Source of the DNA: a virus
Taxonomy: Duplodnaviria; Heunggongvirae; Uroviricota; Caudoviricetes
Virus record (IMG/VR): IMGVR_UViG_2711768076_000013
DNA: 36,917 bases
Strand: one strand, 5' to 3'
The notes below the pieces were generated by a model. That model searched no databases and had not been told where the DNA came from. It worked only from the letters and a program-made list of their open reading frames with translations. Numbering within the stretch: position 1 is the first letter of the stretch; the number at the start of each line of letters is the position of its first letter. Shown one piece after another: positions 1 to 13,019 of this stretch. The position numbers and the translations under genes are program-made.

Positions 1-1032
1 TCAAAAACTTGCTATTGATGTTGGTAGTGTTGCCAGCGGATTAAACCGTAATGCAGTTTCCAGGTGATCCGGTGCCAGATGTGCGTAACGCATAGTCATT
101 TTTATATCGTGATGCCCGAGAATTTTTTGTAAGGCCAGGATATTTCCACCCGACATCATGAAGTGCGCCGCAAACGTATGGCGCAGAACGTGTGTCAGTT
201 GACCGCGAGGGAGCACGATAGACGTTTTTTCCATCACGGATAAAAATTGAAAATAGCAGTCTGTAAAGAAATTGAACCCATCAAGCGCCATGATCTCTTC
301 GTAAAGCTCTTTACTGATAGGGATGCTTCTGTTTTTCTTCCCCTTCGTTCTTACAAAGGTAATTCGGTATTTGGTCACCTGTGAGCGGGTAAGATTTACG
401 GCTTCACGCCAACGTGCGCCTGTGCTTAAGCATATCTTAACTACCAGTGCCAGAATTGGGTCCTGACGTTTGCAATCAGCCAGCAATTCAACAATCTGCT
501 CATGGGTAAGCCATGCCATCTCTTTTTCTGCGATGGTGAATTTTCGCATGTTCTCCAGTGGGTTTGGATACGACCATTCGCCCAGGCGGGATAGTTCGCT
601 AAAAACACTACTTAGATAGCTTTGCTCCAGGTTAATGGTGACCGGGCTGGCTCCTTTCTTCCATTTCTCGCTGAAGTAGATCTCACCTGTCAGGCGTTTA
701 TCTCGATAGTGGGCAAACATTTTAGAGGTGAGATCGGTTGCAAGGGGATTGCCCAGAGCGTCAACCATCAGCAGCAATTTGTCATAGACATGCTGCCCAG
801 CAGTCAGAGATTTACCATGTAGTTTGAACCATAGTTCAACCACGTCTTTCAGTGTTCGACGATCCACTGATTCACCCAGCCAGGGCTTTGCTTCGGTTTC
901 TTCCATCGTGTGGCGCTCAAAAGCCAGAGCTTCGCCTTTGGTGGCGAATTGTTTACGCACACGACGCCCACTGCGTCCGGCGGGGTAACATTCGCAAAGC
1001 CATTTTCCTGTGGTGAGTTTTCGTACTGCCAT
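1..1032 (-). CDS. int: Tyrosine site-specific integrase (P2/186 family)
   Basis: 343-aa ORF ending at window position 1; C-terminal catalytic region HVLRHTFAAHFMM...GHHDIKMTMRYAHL fits the R..HxxR..Y tyrosine recombinase pattern; sits next to the repressor as in P2/186 phages. Confidence 0.9.
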   Translation of the reverse strand: MAVRKLTTGKWLCECYPAGRSGRRVRKQFATKGEALAFERHTMEETEAKPWLGESVDRRTLKDVVELWFKLHGKSLTAGQHVYDKLLLMVDALGNPLATDLTSKMFAHYRDKRLTGEIYFSEKWKKGASPVTINLEQSYLSSVFSELSRLGEWSYPNPLENMRKFTIAEKEMAWLTHEQIVELLADCKRQDPILALVVKICLSTGARWREAVNLTRSQVTKYRITFVRTKGKKNRSIPISKELYEEIMALDGFNFFTDCYFQFLSVMEKTSIVLPRGQLTHVLRHTFAAHFMMSGGNILALQKILGHHDIKMTMRYAHLAPDHLETALRFNPLATLPTSIASF

Positions 1033-1110: not shown

Positions 1111-1482
1111 TCATAAGTACCGATATGATTGCGGGGCCGTTATGTTATCACCTAATGAACTTAGATGAAGCGGTTGATCATAGATTTTTAGATTGCCAAT
1201 TTCTATAGCAAAGGCTTTTTCTTTGCTATGAAAATATGAGTCAAAAAATTGTTTGCTGATACCTGCGTATTGGCTTGTTTTTTCCCATACAATACTTGGC
1301 TTGTCTTCTATAACATCTGCAATGTCAAATTCAGCAACAACTTTACCGACAGGCATTGTTGAATAAATAACCACAGATTTTACATCCGGTTTTTTGAAAA
1401 TTCCTTTTCGGAATTCAAATTTCTTTGTTCCATTAAGGATTTTTTCTACATGCTCTGGGTTAATTGACAATAATACTTTCAT
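1111..1482 (-). CDS. ASCH-domain (PUA-like) protein, last gene of cargo cassette
   Basis: Start taken at MKVLLSINPEHVEKILNGTKKFEFRK (the ORF track extends to 1494); this N-terminus resembles the ASCH fold of E. coli YqfB as recalled. AT-rich. Overlaps the stop of the upstream gene, so likely translationally coupled. Confidence 0.5.
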   Translation of the reverse strand: MKVLLSINPEHVEKILNGTKKFEFRKGIFKKPDVKSVVIYSTMPVGKVVAEFDIADVIEDKPSIVWEKTSQYAGISKQFFDSYFHSKEKAFAIEIGNLKIYDQPLHLSSLGDNITAPQSYRYL

Positions 1483-2530
1483 TGACGCCACCAAGTTTAA
1501 TAATGCTATTAAACTGTTCGTTTGTTAACTTCATGATCCCCCAGTAAGCTCGCGGGGATAATCCTACTTCAGAAATAAGTTTAGCACGATTTAGTCTTTT
1601 GGGCAAAGCAAGGTTATATGTAAAGCTTATAATATATGGGTATTTTTTTGTTCTATAAAAACTTTTAAGCTCAGATTCTGTAAAAACAGAATATCTAGAA
1701 CAGTAATTTAGAAATTCTTTCTCTGTAACGAAAGAGTTTATATTTCTAACTTTTTCTACTACACATAAAGAAGTAGCAACAGAACGGTAATATGCAGGCC
1801 CTTGATTATCGGATGTTCGGTATATAACGATTATATCGTTTGGCTTCATTAATTCAACATCTGACATGCCACAAATATATACTTTTCTAATGCTATTTGC
1901 ATATGATACATCAGCAACAACGTCTGGTGACTCTGTAATTAATTTTGAGTCAGGGAATAAACGAGTATGAAATACGGGGTATATTGAAAGCAAGAATTTA
2001 TTTTCACTGCCTCTGTTATTAATAAATGGATAATCTGACAGTATATCGCCAGTAAGAGCATTACTATTCATTTCTTTTATTAGTACTCGCTCTACACCAT
2101 TTTGAGATTCTTTTACTCCAATATCTATAAAGCCATAGATTTTGAATAGTCTAATTAAGTAGTCATGTTTTTCAAAAACAGTCACATATATATTGTTAGC
2201 ATTATTATCTAGAGCGTGATCGAATATTTTTTTTAAAAATCGTTGACCACGAAGAGTTCCTTTTGGATTAAATTTAAATGTTCCAACTTTTAGATGAATA
2301 CCATCAGGAATATTTGGTTTTGTATCTTCAATGATACCCACTTCTGTTTTTAGATACAAAAAACCATCAATTTTATTTTGTTCATCATAAAGGACATATG
2401 CATAATCATTTGATTTACATTTAGAATGGAACCAATCAATAAACCCATGAGCATAATCGGATTTTAAAGAGTCAAAAAAAACATCAGAAAAATCTACTTG
2501 ATTAAAAGGTATGTATTTTAAGTTTTCCAT
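1460..2530 (-). CDS. GNAT-like acetyltransferase-fold protein with extra C-terminal domain (cargo)
   Basis: 356-aa ORF. The segment NIYVTVFEKHDYLIRLFKIYGFIDIG resembles GNAT motif B and GTLRGQRFLKKIF lies where motif A would be. Very AT-rich. Start codon 2 nt from the stop of the upstream gene. Confidence 0.45.
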   Translation of the reverse strand: MENLKYIPFNQVDFSDVFFDSLKSDYAHGFIDWFHSKCKSNDYAYVLYDEQNKIDGFLYLKTEVGIIEDTKPNIPDGIHLKVGTFKFNPKGTLRGQRFLKKIFDHALDNNANNIYVTVFEKHDYLIRLFKIYGFIDIGVKESQNGVERVLIKEMNSNALTGDILSDYPFINNRGSENKFLLSIYPVFHTRLFPDSKLITESPDVVADVSYANSIRKVYICGMSDVELMKPNDIIVIYRTSDNQGPAYYRSVATSLCVVEKVRNINSFVTEKEFLNYCSRYSVFTESELKSFYRTKKYPYIISFTYNLALPKRLNRAKLISEVGLSPRAYWGIMKLTNEQFNSIIKLGGVNESIIVN

Positions 2531-2532
2531 GT

Positions 2533-3315
2533 TTACAATCCTATTTTAAAATCACATGATAAGCAAATTGATTTAGTTTTAGATATGACGGCGAGTGTTT
2601 TCCCCGGAGTTTGACAATTAGTACAAACATTCCAATTTTTCGGTTTTCCATCAATCTTATATATGTTGGCTAAAATATCATCTAAAGGAAAAAATGTTTT
2701 CATCATGTCTATAATGCTTGCTGCATAGTTTTTCTTTGCCTCGACTAATTTTTGTTCAGGCATGTTTTTATCATTTATCAAGCAATGAACCAGGTTATTA
2801 AGAGGCTCTTGATATATCTCCTCTCGAAAAATTAGAAATGCACTTAAAAAGTCTTTACGTATTTCTTTATTATTACTTTTACCTAAGTGAATTACTTTAT
2901 TTCTTTCTTTGCGCAAAATATCATAAATTTCATTAAAGCGCGGTGAAAGATTTCGCCCACTGATACTTTGTGCTATTCTATGTAGCTCGGTTGCGTCTAA
3001 TGTTGAACATTCGAAAAATGATTTGTTTTTATAGCAGTCTTTTACTTCTTTTAAAAGTAAATAAACACTATGCTCAGCAATTATAGACTTTAGATATATT
3101 TCAGCAGAATTAAAGAGTATTACCAAGCCAGATTGAAAGAAACTCTCTTTTTCGGATATTAAGCGTTTCAGTCGTTGTTCTTCTGTTTCAGGTTGAGCTG
3201 GGGCTTGCAATAACTCAATGTCAGAATAAAAATGTAAGTAGAATGTTTTAATGAAAAACTCAAGGTTCCTTTTGGCATAAAGAAGCATCTCTTCATTGTT
3301 AGGAAGGTCTGTCAT
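2533..3315 (-). CDS. Hypothetical protein with HEPN-like R-N-x3-H motif and C-terminal CxxC..CxxC zinc ribbon (cargo)
   Basis: 260-aa ORF. Contains ERNKVIH (Rx4H with N after R, as in HEPN RNases) and a C-terminal CTNCQ...CLSCD. AT-rich. Its ATG directly abuts the cI stop (TAAATG on the coding strand). Confidence 0.4.
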   Translation of the reverse strand: MTDLPNNEEMLLYAKRNLEFFIKTFYLHFYSDIELLQAPAQPETEEQRLKRLISEKESFFQSGLVILFNSAEIYLKSIIAEHSVYLLLKEVKDCYKNKSFFECSTLDATELHRIAQSISGRNLSPRFNEIYDILRKERNKVIHLGKSNNKEIRKDFLSAFLIFREEIYQEPLNNLVHCLINDKNMPEQKLVEAKKNYAASIIDMMKTFFPLDDILANIYKIDGKPKNWNVCTNCQTPGKTLAVISKTKSICLSCDFKIGL

Positions 3316-4272
3316 TTAAATATCCTTATATATACCAAAACATTTTGCTATTACATTAATATCCGCTAATAGACATTCAAAAGTTGTACTTTCATTAGAT
3401 ACTTTTACTTTTGCAATTGGAATTCTGGTTAGATCTCTAACACTAAATTTTCCTTCGATTTCAACTAACCATTTTCCATCGGTTACTTCATCAAATGCTT
3501 TGTCTGCAAGATATACATTTCCTTCATCTACTATAGATATGGGGTTTTTCACCTTGCTGGGTAACATGGTTTTATCAAAAGGGAGATAATTTGTATCAAA
3601 CAACATACCATTTATAACTTTTTTCCGTGTGATAGCAATAATATCGCTCTTAGCGTCTTCAAAGACAGGACCATTACCGGTTGTTAGCCACATTAATGAA
3701 GCTCCGGTTTCAAGTGCGCACTGGATGATCCAATCAGCTGGAAAGGTATCTCTCATGTAACGATTGGCTAATGTGCTTTTTGAAACACCAATGTGATCCG
3801 CTAGAGCTTGCCTTGTCTTAAATCCATAGGCGATAACTATTCGCTCGATTGCCGCTTTTCCTCCTTGATTAACCTCAATGAGGCTCTCGTTCTTTCGGTG
3901 AGTATTGTTCTCATTTGGGGATTTTGTGTCTAAAGTGAGAGAATGAATCTCCTTACCATCTTTATGGTGGTTCTGTTCTGTATTATGTGTGACAGCCTCT
4001 ACTGTGTTATCGGTACCAAATGCCAACCATTCAACCGACACGCCAGTTTCCATGCTGCAGATTATGACCCAGTCGGCAGGGAAGGTATCACGAGCATATC
4101 TGTTCGCCATTGTGCTTTGGGATATCCCTAAGTGGTTACAGAATGCTTGACGTGAAGTGAAGCCATAAGCTTTCAAAATTCGGTCAATGACCTGTTGCCC
4201 TCCACGATTCTGCATGATTACAGTTTTCATTGCATCATCAACATGGCGAAATGTGATTTTGTGTGTTGACAT
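3316..4272 (-). CDS. cI: CI-type immunity repressor with two tandem N-terminal HTH domains
   Basis: 318 aa. Two diverged copies of a phage CI-repressor HTH (ILKAYGFTSRQAFCNHLGISQSTMANRYARDTFPADW and IVIAYGFKTRQALADHIGVSKSTLANRYMRDTFPADW), then a C-terminal domain resembling phage 186 CI as recalled. Divergent from the apl-like gene. Confidence 0.8.
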   Translation of the reverse strand: MSTHKITFRHVDDAMKTVIMQNRGGQQVIDRILKAYGFTSRQAFCNHLGISQSTMANRYARDTFPADWVIICSMETGVSVEWLAFGTDNTVEAVTHNTEQNHHKDGKEIHSLTLDTKSPNENNTHRKNESLIEVNQGGKAAIERIVIAYGFKTRQALADHIGVSKSTLANRYMRDTFPADWIIQCALETGASLMWLTTGNGPVFEDAKSDIIAITRKKVINGMLFDTNYLPFDKTMLPSKVKNPISIVDEGNVYLADKAFDEVTDGKWLVEIEGKFSVRDLTRIPIAKVKVSNESTTFECLLADINVIAKCFGIYKDI

Positions 4273-10176: not shown

Positions 10177-10220
10177 CGTAGATCATGCAGGTGCATGAAA
10201 ACCACTACATAAAGCGGGCA

Positions 10221-10239
10221 GGCGTGGCGGGGATACGAG
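10221..10239. other. Candidate cos cohesive-end sequence
   Basis: GGCGTGGCGGGGATACGAG; the first 13 nt match the 186/P2 cohesive-end sequence as recalled (GGCGTGGCGGGGAAAGCAT). Location between the replication region and the packaging genes is as expected. Confidence 0.4.
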
Positions 10240-10270
10240 CGCGCGCTCATTACTTTTATAATTCTAGGGT

Positions 10271-10276
10271 TATAAT
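10271..10276 (+). promoter_or_regulatory. Putative -10 element for the KAP NTPase gene
   Basis: Perfect TATAAT 29 nt upstream of ATG 10305, followed by AGGAG at 10293..10297. Confidence 0.35.
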
Positions 10277-10304
10277 ACGGGGCTGTCTTTCTAGGAGAAA
10301 ACAC

Positions 10305-11957
10305 ATGTCCTTAGAGTTTATCAAAGAACAGTTGTCAGATTTTATCTCATCTACAGAACCAGAAGTAATGGCTATACAGGGTGAATGGGGAATTGGTAAA
10401 ACCTATACTTGGAATACGTTCCTAAAAGATAATAAAGATAAGGTTGCATTTAATAGATATAGTTATGTCTCTCTTTTTGGTATAAATTCACTAGATTCTT
10501 TAAAGTATTCTATTTTTGAGAATGCAATTACAAAGGAATATATTGGAAATAAACCTGATTTGGAGACAGCAACAACAAACGCAAGTGGACTTTTTGAATC
10601 ATTTTCTCGAAAAGCAGCAGGTTTGTTAAAAGAAGTTCCTGTTGTAAAAAACTTCTCTACGACACTTGAAGCAATGTCATTTCTGACCGTTTCTAAAATG
10701 ATTGTAGTAATAGATGACTTAGAAAGGCGTGGCAAAAATTTAGATGTTAAAGATGTTTTAGGGCTAGTATCTCTATTAAAAGAGCAGAAGGATTGTAAGG
10801 TGGTTCTATTGCTTAACAATGGCACAGCTAGTATGGAGGATTATTCTACTTATAAAGAAAAGGTCATTGATAGAGATATCACTTACAATCCAACACCAGA
10901 AGAATGCGCAGATATAGCCTATAAAGGTGATTCTCATGTTTATAACTTGTTAAGTAAATATTCCATTTCTTTAGGTATCAAGAATATTCGAATCTTAAAA
11001 AAGATAGAACGTTTTTTCGTGTCCTTAATACCAAATATTATAGGTGATGTTGAGACAATTTCAAATGAAGTTGCGCATTCATTAACTCTGTATTGTTGGA
11101 GCCATTACGGATTTTCTCCAGAGGGAGATGTGCCATCACTAGAATATATTAGGGGAGTGAGGAATATATATACTTATAATGACAAGGAAGAAGGCCATGA
11201 GAAAATCTGGCTTAATACCTTGCTTAAATATGGATATAGAAAAACGAATGATCTTGATGAGGTTCTTATTGATATGGTTAGATATGGCTATCTTGATAAG
11301 AGCAGTTTCCAAAGACAAATAAGCCTAAGGAATGAGGAGATTACGCGTGATAATAAACGAGGTTCCTTATCTGAGGCATGGCAGTTCTTTCATAATTCAT
11401 TTGATGACAATCAAAATCAGGTTGTTGACAAGCTATATCAAGCGGTGGTTGATGGGATGAAGTATGTGACTCCAAGTGATTTAGATAATGTTGTCGGACT
11501 ATATAGGGATTTCGGAGAGAATGCTAAGGCGAGTGAATTGATTGAACAGTTTATTAATTATGGTAACGATGCTCTAAAGGAATATGTTCAATCTATTTAT
11601 GTGAATGTTCATCCCGTAAGAGATACTGAGTTGTTGTCAAAAATTCAAGCCTATTCTAAGATTATAAATATTGATGGTTCAATATATGATGTTCTTAAGA
11701 AATTATCAGGTCAGAATGGTTGGTCTGATAGACATGAGGAAATATTGGATGCTGCTTCAGTAGATGACTACTATCAATTATTTAAAAATGTCATTCTTGA
11801 TGGTGGTGATTCAATAATAGCTACGGCGCTTAAATTCGGAAATTTTAGTAATGGTTCTGATAGAATGAATCGTATAGGGAAAAAGGCAAGGGATGCCTTG
11901 ATAAGAATTGGAGATGAATCGGCGATTAATAAAATGCGTGTAAGGCGATTTTTGTGA
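10305..11957 (+). CDS. KAP-family P-loop NTPase (candidate anti-phage or abortive-infection protein)
   Basis: Walker A in QGEWGIGKTYTW and Walker B-like MIVVIDDLERRG, the KAP-family signatures. Strongly AT-rich compared with flanking phage genes. Sits at the P2 tin/old hotspot position between gene A and the portal gene. Confidence 0.7.
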   Translation: MSLEFIKEQLSDFISSTEPEVMAIQGEWGIGKTYTWNTFLKDNKDKVAFNRYSYVSLFGINSLDSLKYSIFENAITKEYIGNKPDLETATTNASGLFESFSRKAAGLLKEVPVVKNFSTTLEAMSFLTVSKMIVVIDDLERRGKNLDVKDVLGLVSLLKEQKDCKVVLLLNNGTASMEDYSTYKEKVIDRDITYNPTPEECADIAYKGDSHVYNLLSKYSISLGIKNIRILKKIERFFVSLIPNIIGDVETISNEVAHSLTLYCWSHYGFSPEGDVPSLEYIRGVRNIYTYNDKEEGHEKIWLNTLLKYGYRKTNDLDEVLIDMVRYGYLDKSSFQRQISLRNEEITRDNKRGSLSEAWQFFHNSFDDNQNQVVDKLYQAVVDGMKYVTPSDLDNVVGLYRDFGENAKASELIEQFINYGNDALKEYVQSIYVNVHPVRDTELLSKIQAYSKIINIDGSIYDVLKKLSGQNGWSDRHEEILDAASVDDYYQLFKNVILDGGDSIIATALKFGNFSNGSDRMNRIGKKARDALIRIGDESAINKMRVRRFL

Positions 11958-11987: not shown

Positions 11988-13019
11988 CTAATTTAATGAG
12001 TAATCATTAAATGCTATGATTTTTTCATTTAGCCAAGTATTAATTTCTATAAGCCTTTTTTGTAACGGAATTAATTCATTTCGGACAAAGACTTTACTAG
12101 CCTTTTCCACATCCCCAAACCCCCCAACATTATTCGGCATTATCCCCATCATTTGCGGCGGCACGCGGTGTGCCGCCATCATGTCGTCCCGGCTCACGTT
12201 CTTGATATTCAAAAACTCATCCTTCGCTGCGACCTCTGACAACGGGATAATCTGAAGCCCGTCCTTTTTGCCGTTAGGCGAGTACATAAACAGGTTGCGG
12301 AAGTTGCCCGGACCTTTGGCGCTTTTCATCGCGTTGCGGAGGTTGTTCACATCCTCTTGGTTTTGCGCAGCATCGGTCATATACATGATGAAGCCTGCAT
12401 GGCTGCCGTTAATGTAATACTTACGGCGGAACAACGTGGCGGACTCGTTGAGCAGAGCTGACGGAATGGCAGAAAGATAACCGGGCAGGCCGTAGATCTC
12501 CTGGTTGATATCCGGTTCCATCAGATGAAAGATGCTGCCTTTCGTGAACTGATACGGCTGCGTAGTCATGCCGTATTGCACAAACCAGTAGGTATCCAGG
12601 TCTAACCCGCGTCGGGTGTATTTTGCCAGCGCAGGTTCAAGGGCGATAACTTCACCGAAGCGGTTCGTGCGTTTCTCCAGGTAAGCGTTACCAAATACCA
12701 GATAGTCCTGCACAAAACGTGAAAAAGCCTGCTGGCTGAGAAGCGGGTGAGGGATGTAGGTACTGGTCAGAATGTTGCATTTCACCGCAATTGGTGAACT
12801 GTGATGCACGGCAGCGCGGAAGGTTCGCGCCAGTCCGTCAAAACTCACTGGCGGCTCATACCAGCGATCTGTCTGTACGCATTCTACATAGTCCAGCAGT
12901 TCGCGGCGGTCCAGAACAGGAACGGGATCGCCAAAGCTGAATGCTTCGGCTGAAGTCTGGCTTTTGTGCTGAATCTGGTTCGTCGACACAGCGCGGTTCT
13001 TCTTACTCTTTCCCATCAA
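11988..13019 (-). CDS. Q: Capsid portal protein (P2 gpQ homologue)
   Basis: 343 aa, matching P2 gpQ in size; overlaps the terminase gene as in P2. Confidence 0.85.
   Translation of the reverse strand: MMGKSKKNRAVSTNQIQHKSQTSAEAFSFGDPVPVLDRRELLDYVECVQTDRWYEPPVSFDGLARTFRAAVHHSSPIAVKCNILTSTYIPHPLLSQQAFSRFVQDYLVFGNAYLEKRTNRFGEVIALEPALAKYTRRGLDLDTYWFVQYGMTTQPYQFTKGSIFHLMEPDINQEIYGLPGYLSAIPSALLNESATLFRRKYYINGSHAGFIMYMTDAAQNQEDVNNLRNAMKSAKGPGNFRNLFMYSPNGKKDGLQIIPLSEVAAKDEFLNIKNVSRDDMMAAHRVPPQMMGIMPNNVGGFGDVEKASKVFVRNELIPLQKRLIEINTWLNEKIIAFNDYSLN

Follow-up and report, generated by a model that had tools for sequence, protein, structure and literature searches.

The 260-amino-acid protein encoded on the minus strand at positions 2533 to 3315 of the analysed DNA, a prophage stretch of 36,917 nucleotides which we refer to as the window, very probably adopts a HEPN fold, as judged from a structural model, and carries a zinc ribbon (ZnR) at its C-terminal end. 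Its gene is the first member of a three-gene cassette, HEPN-ZnR / GNAT-ASCH / ASCH, and this cassette, rather than a single gene coupled to the repressor gene cI, is the real unit. The cassette looks like an anti-phage system. According to the reading that we favor, with a probability of about 60%, the protein is a HEPN endoribonuclease (RNase) which serves as the effector arm of a prophage-borne defense cassette; both the RNase activity and the anti-phage role are what we infer from the lines of evidence presented here.

The window belongs to a prophage of Escherichia coli which is of the phage 186 / P2 type and sits beside rcdA; of 5,426 complete E. coli genomes, 28 contain identical DNA. 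Read from the left, the genes are int, three AT-rich genes, and cI, followed in the rightward direction by an Apl-like gene, cII, fil, a dam methylase gene, the replication gene A, and the structural genes. The minus-strand array that runs from cI to int consists of the following genes.

1..1032, minus strand: prophage integrase (int), the last gene of the array
1111..1494, minus strand: gene 3, ASCH-domain protein (Pfam ASCH, E 3e-5), PADLOC PDC-M11B (E 4.9e-48), homologue of the "GevA antitoxin"
1460..2530, minus strand: gene 2, 356-aa GNAT-ASCH fusion protein, PADLOC PDC-M11A (E 2e-130)
2533..3315, minus strand: gene for the 260-aa protein with predicted HEPN domain and zinc ribbon, ATG start, RefSeq hypothetical protein WP_000130914.1
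3316..4272, minus strand: 186-type CI repressor with two tandem N-terminal HTH domains (Pfam Phage_CI_repr, twice, and Phage_CI_C)

Since the GC content of the three genes between int and cI is about 30%, against about 53% in the prophage backbone, we consider them acquired cargo. The genes are tightly packed: the TAA stop codon of cI (3316-3318) directly adjoins the ATG of the HEPN gene at 3315, with an AAGGA 7 nt upstream; the start of the GNAT-ASCH gene sits 2 nt past the stop codon of the HEPN gene; and the ASCH gene, whose RefSeq start is at 1482, overlaps the end of the GNAT-ASCH gene. A promoter and terminator scan, itself at chance level, detected nothing resembling a terminator on the minus strand from cI to int, and its promoter signal in this region was not above chance. 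The lysogenic promoter of phage 186 drives both cI and int. Since the genes of the array abut or overlap, no terminator-like site interrupts them, and the 186 promoter serves the genes at both ends, expression of the cassette in the lysogen is to be expected. The gene spacing and the known biology of phage 186 make co-transcription with cI from the lysogenic promoter most likely. The arrangement recalls rexAB of phage lambda, which follows the repressor gene and is active in the lysogen, where it keeps other phages out. The HEPN gene likewise comes right after a repressor gene and is presumably active in the lysogen for the same purpose, although the proteins are unrelated and the slot is located here between cI and int of a 186-type prophage.

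The two genes downstream of the HEPN gene are adjacent and correspond to component A (GNAT-ASCH) and component B (ASCH) of the PADLOC system PDC-M11. The PDC systems are candidates that came to notice through homologues lying inside BREX, DISARM, or type I RM loci. PDC-M11 comprises two genes, whereas the HEPN-ZnR gene is an extra first gene, lying outside the PADLOC definition. The GNAT-ASCH protein of the window shares 57% identity with the protein named "GevT toxin" in GenBank PV340567.1, the record of the lambdoid phage PhiR47_2, in which the genes for the "GevT toxin" and the "GevA antitoxin" directly follow cI, where lambda has rexAB; GevTA of L102 occupies this rexAB-like position. A literature search for GevT and GevA returned only unrelated papers and none behind those names, and our search of the literature for WP_000130914.1 or for the three-gene cassette did not find a description of either.

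In 10 of 10 lineages examined, the HEPN gene adjoins the GNAT-ASCH gene, which is followed by the ASCH gene. The cassette was found in E. coli, Enterobacter (in several contexts), Hafnia, Serratia, Dickeya, Morganella, Yersinia, Photobacterium, and the lineage L048, where it is still present although the HEPN relative is only 34% identical to the protein of the window. The spacing from the HEPN gene to the GNAT-ASCH gene ranges from -1 to +2 nt, except in L048, whose called genes share 34 nt. Its genomic settings vary: the cassette lies in 186-like prophages of E. coli, Hafnia, Serratia, and Yersinia ruckeri, in prophage remnants of Dickeya and Photobacterium, in a P4-like satellite of Enterobacter, and, with no repressor gene, at plain chromosomal sites of Enterobacter and Morganella. 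Four distant relatives (P0146, P0148, P0152, and P0156) lie on contigs of about 2 kb or less, which are too small to show their gene context. The initial annotation described the protein as coupled to cI. This is accurate for the window, where the cI stop codon abuts the ATG, but the constant partner of the gene is the GNAT-ASCH / ASCH pair, and repressor-free sites carry the cassette as well; the gene is more aptly framed as the variable first gene of a HEPN-ZnR / GNAT-ASCH / ASCH cassette in a lysogenic operon.

The initial annotation also reported the 260-aa open reading frame with the sequence ERNKVIH, which we confirm, and a cysteine pattern of the CxxC-N17-CxxC type at the C terminus. 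To describe these elements across relatives, two alignments are used here, A1, which contains 19 homologues down to 36% identity, and A3, which contains 40 members of a wider family down to about 17% identity. The features of the protein are listed below.

2812..3297, minus strand: predicted HEPN core, residues about 7-168, from DSSP on the AF2 model and comparison of its layout with PMC3710099
3088..3102, minus strand: E72-I-Y-L-K76, the Ex3K of helix 2 and putative second conserved element of the HEPN active site, invariant in A1, with E72 and K76 conserved to at least 90% in A3
2887..2904, minus strand: R138-N-K-V-I-H143, putative catalytic Rx4H, running from the C-terminal end of helix 3 into the loop, invariant in A1 and A3
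2554..2625, minus strand: zinc ribbon C231xxC234-N16-C251xxC254 with predicted short beta strands, all four Cys invariant, pattern present in 0.1% of shuffles

ERNKVIH, with R138 and H143, is the sole Rx4-6H of WP_000130914.1. When the protein was shuffled 20,000 times, an Rx4-6H appeared in 43.5% of the shuffles, the stricter R[NDH]x3-5H in 7.3%, and the CxxC-N10-30-CxxC pattern in 0.1%. The zinc-ribbon pattern is thus unlikely to have arisen by chance, while the Rx4-6H alone is no evidence for an RNase, in agreement with the caution of the initial annotation that the motif is too short to prove one by itself. What lifts both elements above chance is their conservation among homologues, as R138, N139, H143, and the cysteines C231, C234, C251, and C254 are invariant in both A1 (n = 19) and A3 (n = 40). 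This includes the polar residue after the arginine, N139, which had been pointed out before. The stretch LFNSAEIYxK (residues 67-76) is invariant in A1, with position 75 near-invariant. At the C-terminal end, the protein reads C231-T-N-C234, a spacer of 16 residues, and C251-L-S-C254, so that the zinc ribbon reported earlier is present, with a spacer that is one residue shorter than stated; its two CxxC knuckles with four conserved Cys are accompanied by strands predicted at 227-229, 241-243, and 249-251, and its metal binding is putative.

The AF2 model built on A1 (pLDDT 90.7, pTM 0.88) is all-helical up to residue 218 and continues with three short strands which bear the cysteines. According to DSSP, helix 1 spans residues 7-37, helix 2 residues 57-82, helix 3 residues 125-144, and helix 4 residues 152-168, with an insert at 83-124; R138 to H143 lie at the C-terminal end of helix 3, which is followed by a loop at 145-151. 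According to Anantharaman et al. 2013 (PMC3710099), HEPN domains are marked by an Rx4-6H at the end of helix 3, by a polar residue (N, D, or H) after its R, by an acidic residue in helix 2, typically within Ex3[KR], and by an insert that separates helices 2 and 3. The model displays this layout, with the Rx4H ending helix 3, N139 after the R, E72x3K76 within helix 57-82, and the insert 83-124, and on the basis of their position in the secondary structure R138 and H143 are predicted to overlay the HEPN catalytic pair. A HEPN-like helical fold and conservation of the R and H were the two expectations by which the initial annotation wished its hypothesis to be judged, and both are borne out. Foldseek against the PDB returned only generic helical proteins, with E of at least 0.35. 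The best structural matches are HEPN toxins of MNT-HEPN toxin-antitoxin pairs (HepT/MntA), among them the AMPylated form 8xdj. However, these toxins, SO_3166 (5yep), 7ae2, and 8xdj, are about 130 aa long, have no zinc ribbon, and share 8-14% sequence identity with the protein of the window. An MNT antitoxin gene was not found beside the HEPN gene, whose neighbors are cI and GNAT-ASCH.

A search of 5.8 billion proteins gave only 24 clusters, all from Enterobacterales except for one from Photobacterium; no family of Pfam, NCBIfam, or PHROGs matches the 260-aa protein, and tblastn against 50,697 phage records yielded no match to it. An exhaustive profile search of 1.84 billion representatives retrieved a wider family of 347 clusters at E <= 0.001, mostly of about 300-320 aa, and hhalign related the narrow to the broad family with a probability of 99.6% (E 1e-24, 255 columns). 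Most members of the wider family in A3 carry a second zinc ribbon, which is absent from the 260-aa branch. As far as these sequence comparisons indicate, the 260-aa protein is a short, one-ribbon branch of an unnamed HEPN-plus-zinc-ribbon family of about 320 aa.

Comparison with labelled models places this family only loosely. The protein of the window matches the PADLOC models DUF3644 (E 2.4e-5), HEC-08 (E 0.0024), and Csx1 (E 0.011), all weakly. Weak PADLOC matches were also obtained among the 40 relatives, to DUF3644 in 20, to HEC-08 in 12 (best E 1.3e-7), and to PDC-S64 in two, and members of the family gave single weak matches to CARF_HEPN, Cas13c, HEPN_Swt1, and HEPN_RiboL-PSP. When PDB sequences were searched with profiles of A1 and of A3, Csx1-Crn2 (8y7f) appeared as a sub-threshold match aligned on the RNxxxH motif; otherwise these searches gave Cys-rich noise and no solved relative. 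The likeness to the HEPN domains of Abi, RnlA, and Cas13 proposed in the initial annotation therefore stands at the level of the superfamily, while the nearest labelled models are HEC-08, DUF3644, and PDC-S64, with weak scores. DUF3644/EC042_2821 is a HEPN family fused to zinc-ribbon, wHTH, and REase domains (Anantharaman et al. 2013). The PADLOC model of that name is the best labelled match of our protein, but Pfam DUF3644 does not match it, and membership was rejected, the window protein having no Pfam DUF3644 match at E up to 1 and the 40 relatives none at E up to 0.01. The DUF3644 protein of E. coli 042, WP_001222856.1, which was taken as the archetype EC042_2821 by its RefSeq product name and its length of 437 aa, not by locus tag, was likewise rejected as a relative, given an hhalign probability of 0.4% and no BLASTP match; this protein itself matches PDC-S19 and not the PADLOC "DUF3644" model. 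Since the labelled matches are weak and the direct test against DUF3644 was negative, we regard the family as an unnamed branch of the HEPN superfamily which is separate from DUF3644 and no more than distantly related to HEC-08.

HEC-08 is a validated anti-phage protein composed of HEPN and zinc-ribbon modules, whose defense is lost when the histidine of the motif is mutated (Payne et al. 2024, bioRxiv 10.1101/2024.01.29.577857). Both proteins have an N-terminal HEPN domain with an Rx4-6H, followed by one or more C-terminal zinc-ribbon-like modules, and the weak profile match (15 bits) connects residues 64-241 of the window protein with positions 43-216 of the 358 profile positions. HEC-08 is longer and has several zinc fingers, whereas the window protein has one ribbon; moreover, HEC-08 was found as a lone gene embedded in Hma systems, whereas the window protein is always accompanied by the GNAT-ASCH / ASCH pair. 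PD-T7-4 and DS-38 are single-protein defenses of E. coli with HEPN and zinc-finger domains, which were validated against phages (bioRxiv 10.1101/2025.01.08.631726). They have in common with the window protein the two-domain idea and the host species, and the PD-T7-4 model is not among the four PADLOC matches of the window protein at E up to 1.

The position of the HEPN gene in the cassette is taken by other genes in related prophages. In 186-like prophages of Brenneria (L012), Raoultella (L014), and Scandinavium (L016), the order is cI, a gene for a 358-aa protein, GNAT-ASCH, ASCH, and int; the 358-aa protein has a C-terminal hydrophobic helix and is predicted to be C-terminally membrane-anchored. 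Two Vibrio prophages (L028 and L031) have a coiled-coil protein of 506-523 aa in the HEPN slot, and in other genomes a small P-loop kinase is encoded beside the GNAT-ASCH / ASCH pair. In a neighbor-joining tree of GNAT-ASCH proteins, which carries no support values and is indicative only, cassettes linked to HEPN and cassettes linked to the membrane protein are interleaved, with Brenneria L012 as sister to Dickeya L005. Because different genes fill it in sister prophages, the gene before GNAT-ASCH is considered a variable position and the cI-int junction a cargo site. We think that this junction of 186-like prophages is worth mining.

In the favored reading, the gene product would be a metal-independent endoribonuclease of the HEPN superfamily, to which a helical linker and a single zinc ribbon are added on the C-terminal side. 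Such enzymes depend on the histidine of the motif and usually form dimers that share a composite site. The cassette between cI and int would most likely be transcribed together with the repressor in the lysogen, like lambda rexAB, and the HEPN protein would be an RNA-cleaving effector held inactive as long as the lysogen is uninfected. Infection by another phage would then release the RNase, leading to translation shutdown. The GNAT-ASCH / ASCH pair may control the HEPN protein or cooperate with it, with acetylation of the RNA substrate or of the nuclease as speculative options. The 260-aa branch occurs only together with the pair and no longer has the second ribbon, from which we infer that control or activation was handed to the pair. 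A stricter proposal, which is conceivable but rather unlikely, makes the three genes one mechanism that couples acetylation and RNA cleavage. In one version, GNAT-ASCH would mark RNA, e.g., tRNA or cytidine, and the HEPN-ZnR nuclease would cut the marked RNA; in the other, the GNAT domain would acetylate the nuclease itself and thereby control it; in both, the free ASCH protein would undo the modification. The cassette would then begin with a plug-in effector slot, which can take up an RNase, a membrane protein, or a coiled-coil protein and is followed by a constant sensor/controller pair, a layout of which no description exists for the PDC-M11 candidate system.

How far the HEPN protein depends on the pair is the question on which the main alternative turns. 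The protein could be a self-sufficient single-gene HEPN defense or toxin, similar to HEC-08 and PD-T7-4, which merely travels beside the pair and whose zinc ribbon and helical linker sense and auto-inhibit; we deem this unlikely, although several results speak for it. At loci fetched with GNAT-ASCH from 36 species, an ASCH gene is nearby in 36 of 36 and a HEPN gene in one of 36; with the pair complete in the other 35, the HEPN protein is dispensable for its core function and could be an independent neighbor. The wider family of about 320 aa likewise occurs apart from GNAT-ASCH: neither GNAT-ASCH nor ASCH is a neighbor in any of 46 metagenome loci, which were fetched with an alignment narrower than the 40-sequence A3, so that proteins of this type can act without GNAT-ASCH, and their unrelated neighbors are of the defense-island type, i.e., a DEAD/ResIII helicase, a GHKL ATPase, a subtilase, and DUF6119. 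In addition, HEC-08 sets the precedent of a lone HEPN plus zinc-finger protein that defends. Yet the 260-aa branch itself was accompanied by the pair wherever it was seen, in relatives as distant as 34% identity and in prophage, satellite, and chromosomal contexts alike; its stop codon lies at most 2 nt from the GNAT-ASCH start or the genes overlap; it has lost the second zinc ribbon of the free-living family; and its slot is taken by other genes in sister cassettes. Linkage, ribbon loss, and slot swaps are the patterns expected of a module, and not of a chance neighbor.

The remaining alternatives assign a different role to the HEPN protein or dispute its fold. By analogy with type VII toxin-antitoxin systems, whose HEPN toxins are AMPylated by MNT antitoxins, the cassette might be an addiction module in which GNAT modification restrains a HEPN toxin and which mainly stabilizes the prophage. 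The structural resemblance to MNT-HEPN toxins, including the AMPylated 8xdj, the location of the cassette within the lysogenic operon, and the labels toxin and antitoxin which the depositor of PV340567.1 gave to the partner genes all agree with such a module, but we consider it improbable: as the pair lacks a HEPN gene in most species, neutralizing HEPN cannot be its main job; the GNAT protein is annotated in PV340567.1 as the toxin, not as the antitoxin; and the cassette is also found at non-mobile chromosomal sites. The toxin label of the GNAT-ASCH partner would suit equally a catalytically silent HEPN scaffold, acting as an RNA-binding sensor or regulator, with GNAT-ASCH as the real effector, and some HEPN domains are indeed non-catalytic substrate binders (PMC3710099). 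Such domains typically lose the Rx4-6H (PMC3710099), whereas R, N, and H are conserved here throughout the family and the Ex3K to at least 90%, which makes a silent scaffold highly improbable. That the protein is not a HEPN protein at all, the motif being a chance match in a generic helical bundle, is the least probable alternative and barely credible. The frequency of the Rx4-6H in shuffles, the empty results from Pfam, NCBIfam, and PHROGs, and the failure of Foldseek to find a PDB match would be in its favor; against it, the motif is invariant, stands at the position required in HEPN domains, and is accompanied by the Ex3K of helix 2, and several independent HEPN profiles weakly match the same segment.

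HEPN RNases with zinc fingers are already known as phage-defense effectors, so that the fold as such is no surprise. What is new is a branch without a database name that is strictly tied to the GNAT-ASCH / ASCH pair, which in turn is no more than a candidate system, and the fact that the position of the HEPN gene is filled by quite different proteins in sister prophages. If the three genes work together, they would form a modular system with an interchangeable first gene on a constant GNAT-ASCH / ASCH pair. Such a system would be tractable, as it consists of three small E. coli genes with clear point mutants, and it would allow one to work out how an acetyltransferase, a possible deacetylase, and an RNase are linked.

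Two further observations concern the region between cI and int in E. coli. In strain EC0880B, a copy of IS4 lies between the ASCH gene and int and leaves the cassette intact. The attachment site used here is occupied in E. coli also by a different 186-like prophage, whose cI-int junction holds an unrelated gene for a 314-aa protein and so again marks itself as a cargo site.

The junction between cI and int appears to work as a variable cargo slot, and this reading is supported by a different 186-like prophage (L055), inserted at the same rcdA-side attachment site as the window prophage, which holds an unrelated gene there. Other 186-like prophages (L012, L014, and L016) carry, between cI and the GNAT-ASCH gene, a gene of another family, which takes the place of the HEPN gene in the window. 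A member of that family lies immediately 5' of GNAT-ASCH in L038, where neither cI nor int was detected within the fetched stretch.

L055:3184-4128, (-), 314-aa gene between cI and int
L012:3888-4964, L014:3835-4974, L016:3903-4976, and L038:3861-4991, family of about 358 to 376 aa with a C-terminal hydrophobic helix

Neither the 314-aa product nor the hydrophobic-helix family has a Pfam or PADLOC match; the latter may be an alternative effector.

Two further proteins recur beside the GNAT-ASCH/ASCH pair.

L028:3474-4994 and L031:3421-4992, coiled-coil protein of 506 to 523 aa in Vibrio prophages
L030:4467-4997, L045:4463-4996, and L048:7914-8423, P-loop kinase of about 170 aa (AAA_17/AAA_18/ADK-like)

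The PADLOC PDC-M11A models are about 500 positions long, and GNAT-ASCH aligned with them only from about position 150; these models may represent fusions with an extra domain resembling the coiled-coil protein or the P-loop kinase. The lambdoid Escherichia phage PhiR47_2 (PV340567.1; L102:3989-5417) has homologues of the GNAT-ASCH and ASCH genes, labelled "GevT toxin" and "GevA antitoxin" in its record, and these immediately follow cI, the same position as that of rexAB in lambda. The pair is also present in the records of Salmonella phage SopEPhi and Lactobacillus prophage Lj965, among others, and, at 26% identity, in that of Methanothermobacter phage psiM100.

Two further observations concern the CI repressor and the N-terminus of the HEPN protein.

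3316-4272, (-), CI repressor (318 aa by ORF, 299 aa in RefSeq)
3301-3315, (-), residues 1 to 5 of the HEPN protein (consensus M-I-x-x-x-P)

CI contains two Phage_CI_repr HTH domains in tandem and one CI_C domain, and its ORF encodes 318 aa, whereas CI is 186 to 207 aa long in related prophages of Hafnia, Serratia, Yersinia, and Photobacterium; the L055 CI is likewise long (292 aa). The window CI allele occurs in 28 E. coli genomes, the same count as that of the cassette carriers. The N-terminal consensus of the HEPN protein is kept throughout the wider family, down to about 17% identity, with P5 at least 90% conserved. Such conservation, unusual for a terminal segment, suggests a structural or catalytic role.

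P2-type phages have known cargo sites, and the position of a second AT-rich cargo gene in the window (GC about 34%), with the replication-gene region on one side and a minus-strand gene (11988-13019) on the other, is reminiscent of these.

10185-11957, (+), KAP-family P-loop NTPase, 590 aa (PADLOC candidate PDC-S49 match, E 4e-27)
11988-13019, (-), gene that opens the late region, where GC is higher

The KAP NTPase gene is probably another defence gene.

Finally, the EC0880B strains, which are laboratory derivatives, carry an IS4 copy (L109:421-1767) between the ASCH gene and int; it cuts int off from the upstream genes, although all three cassette genes remain intact.
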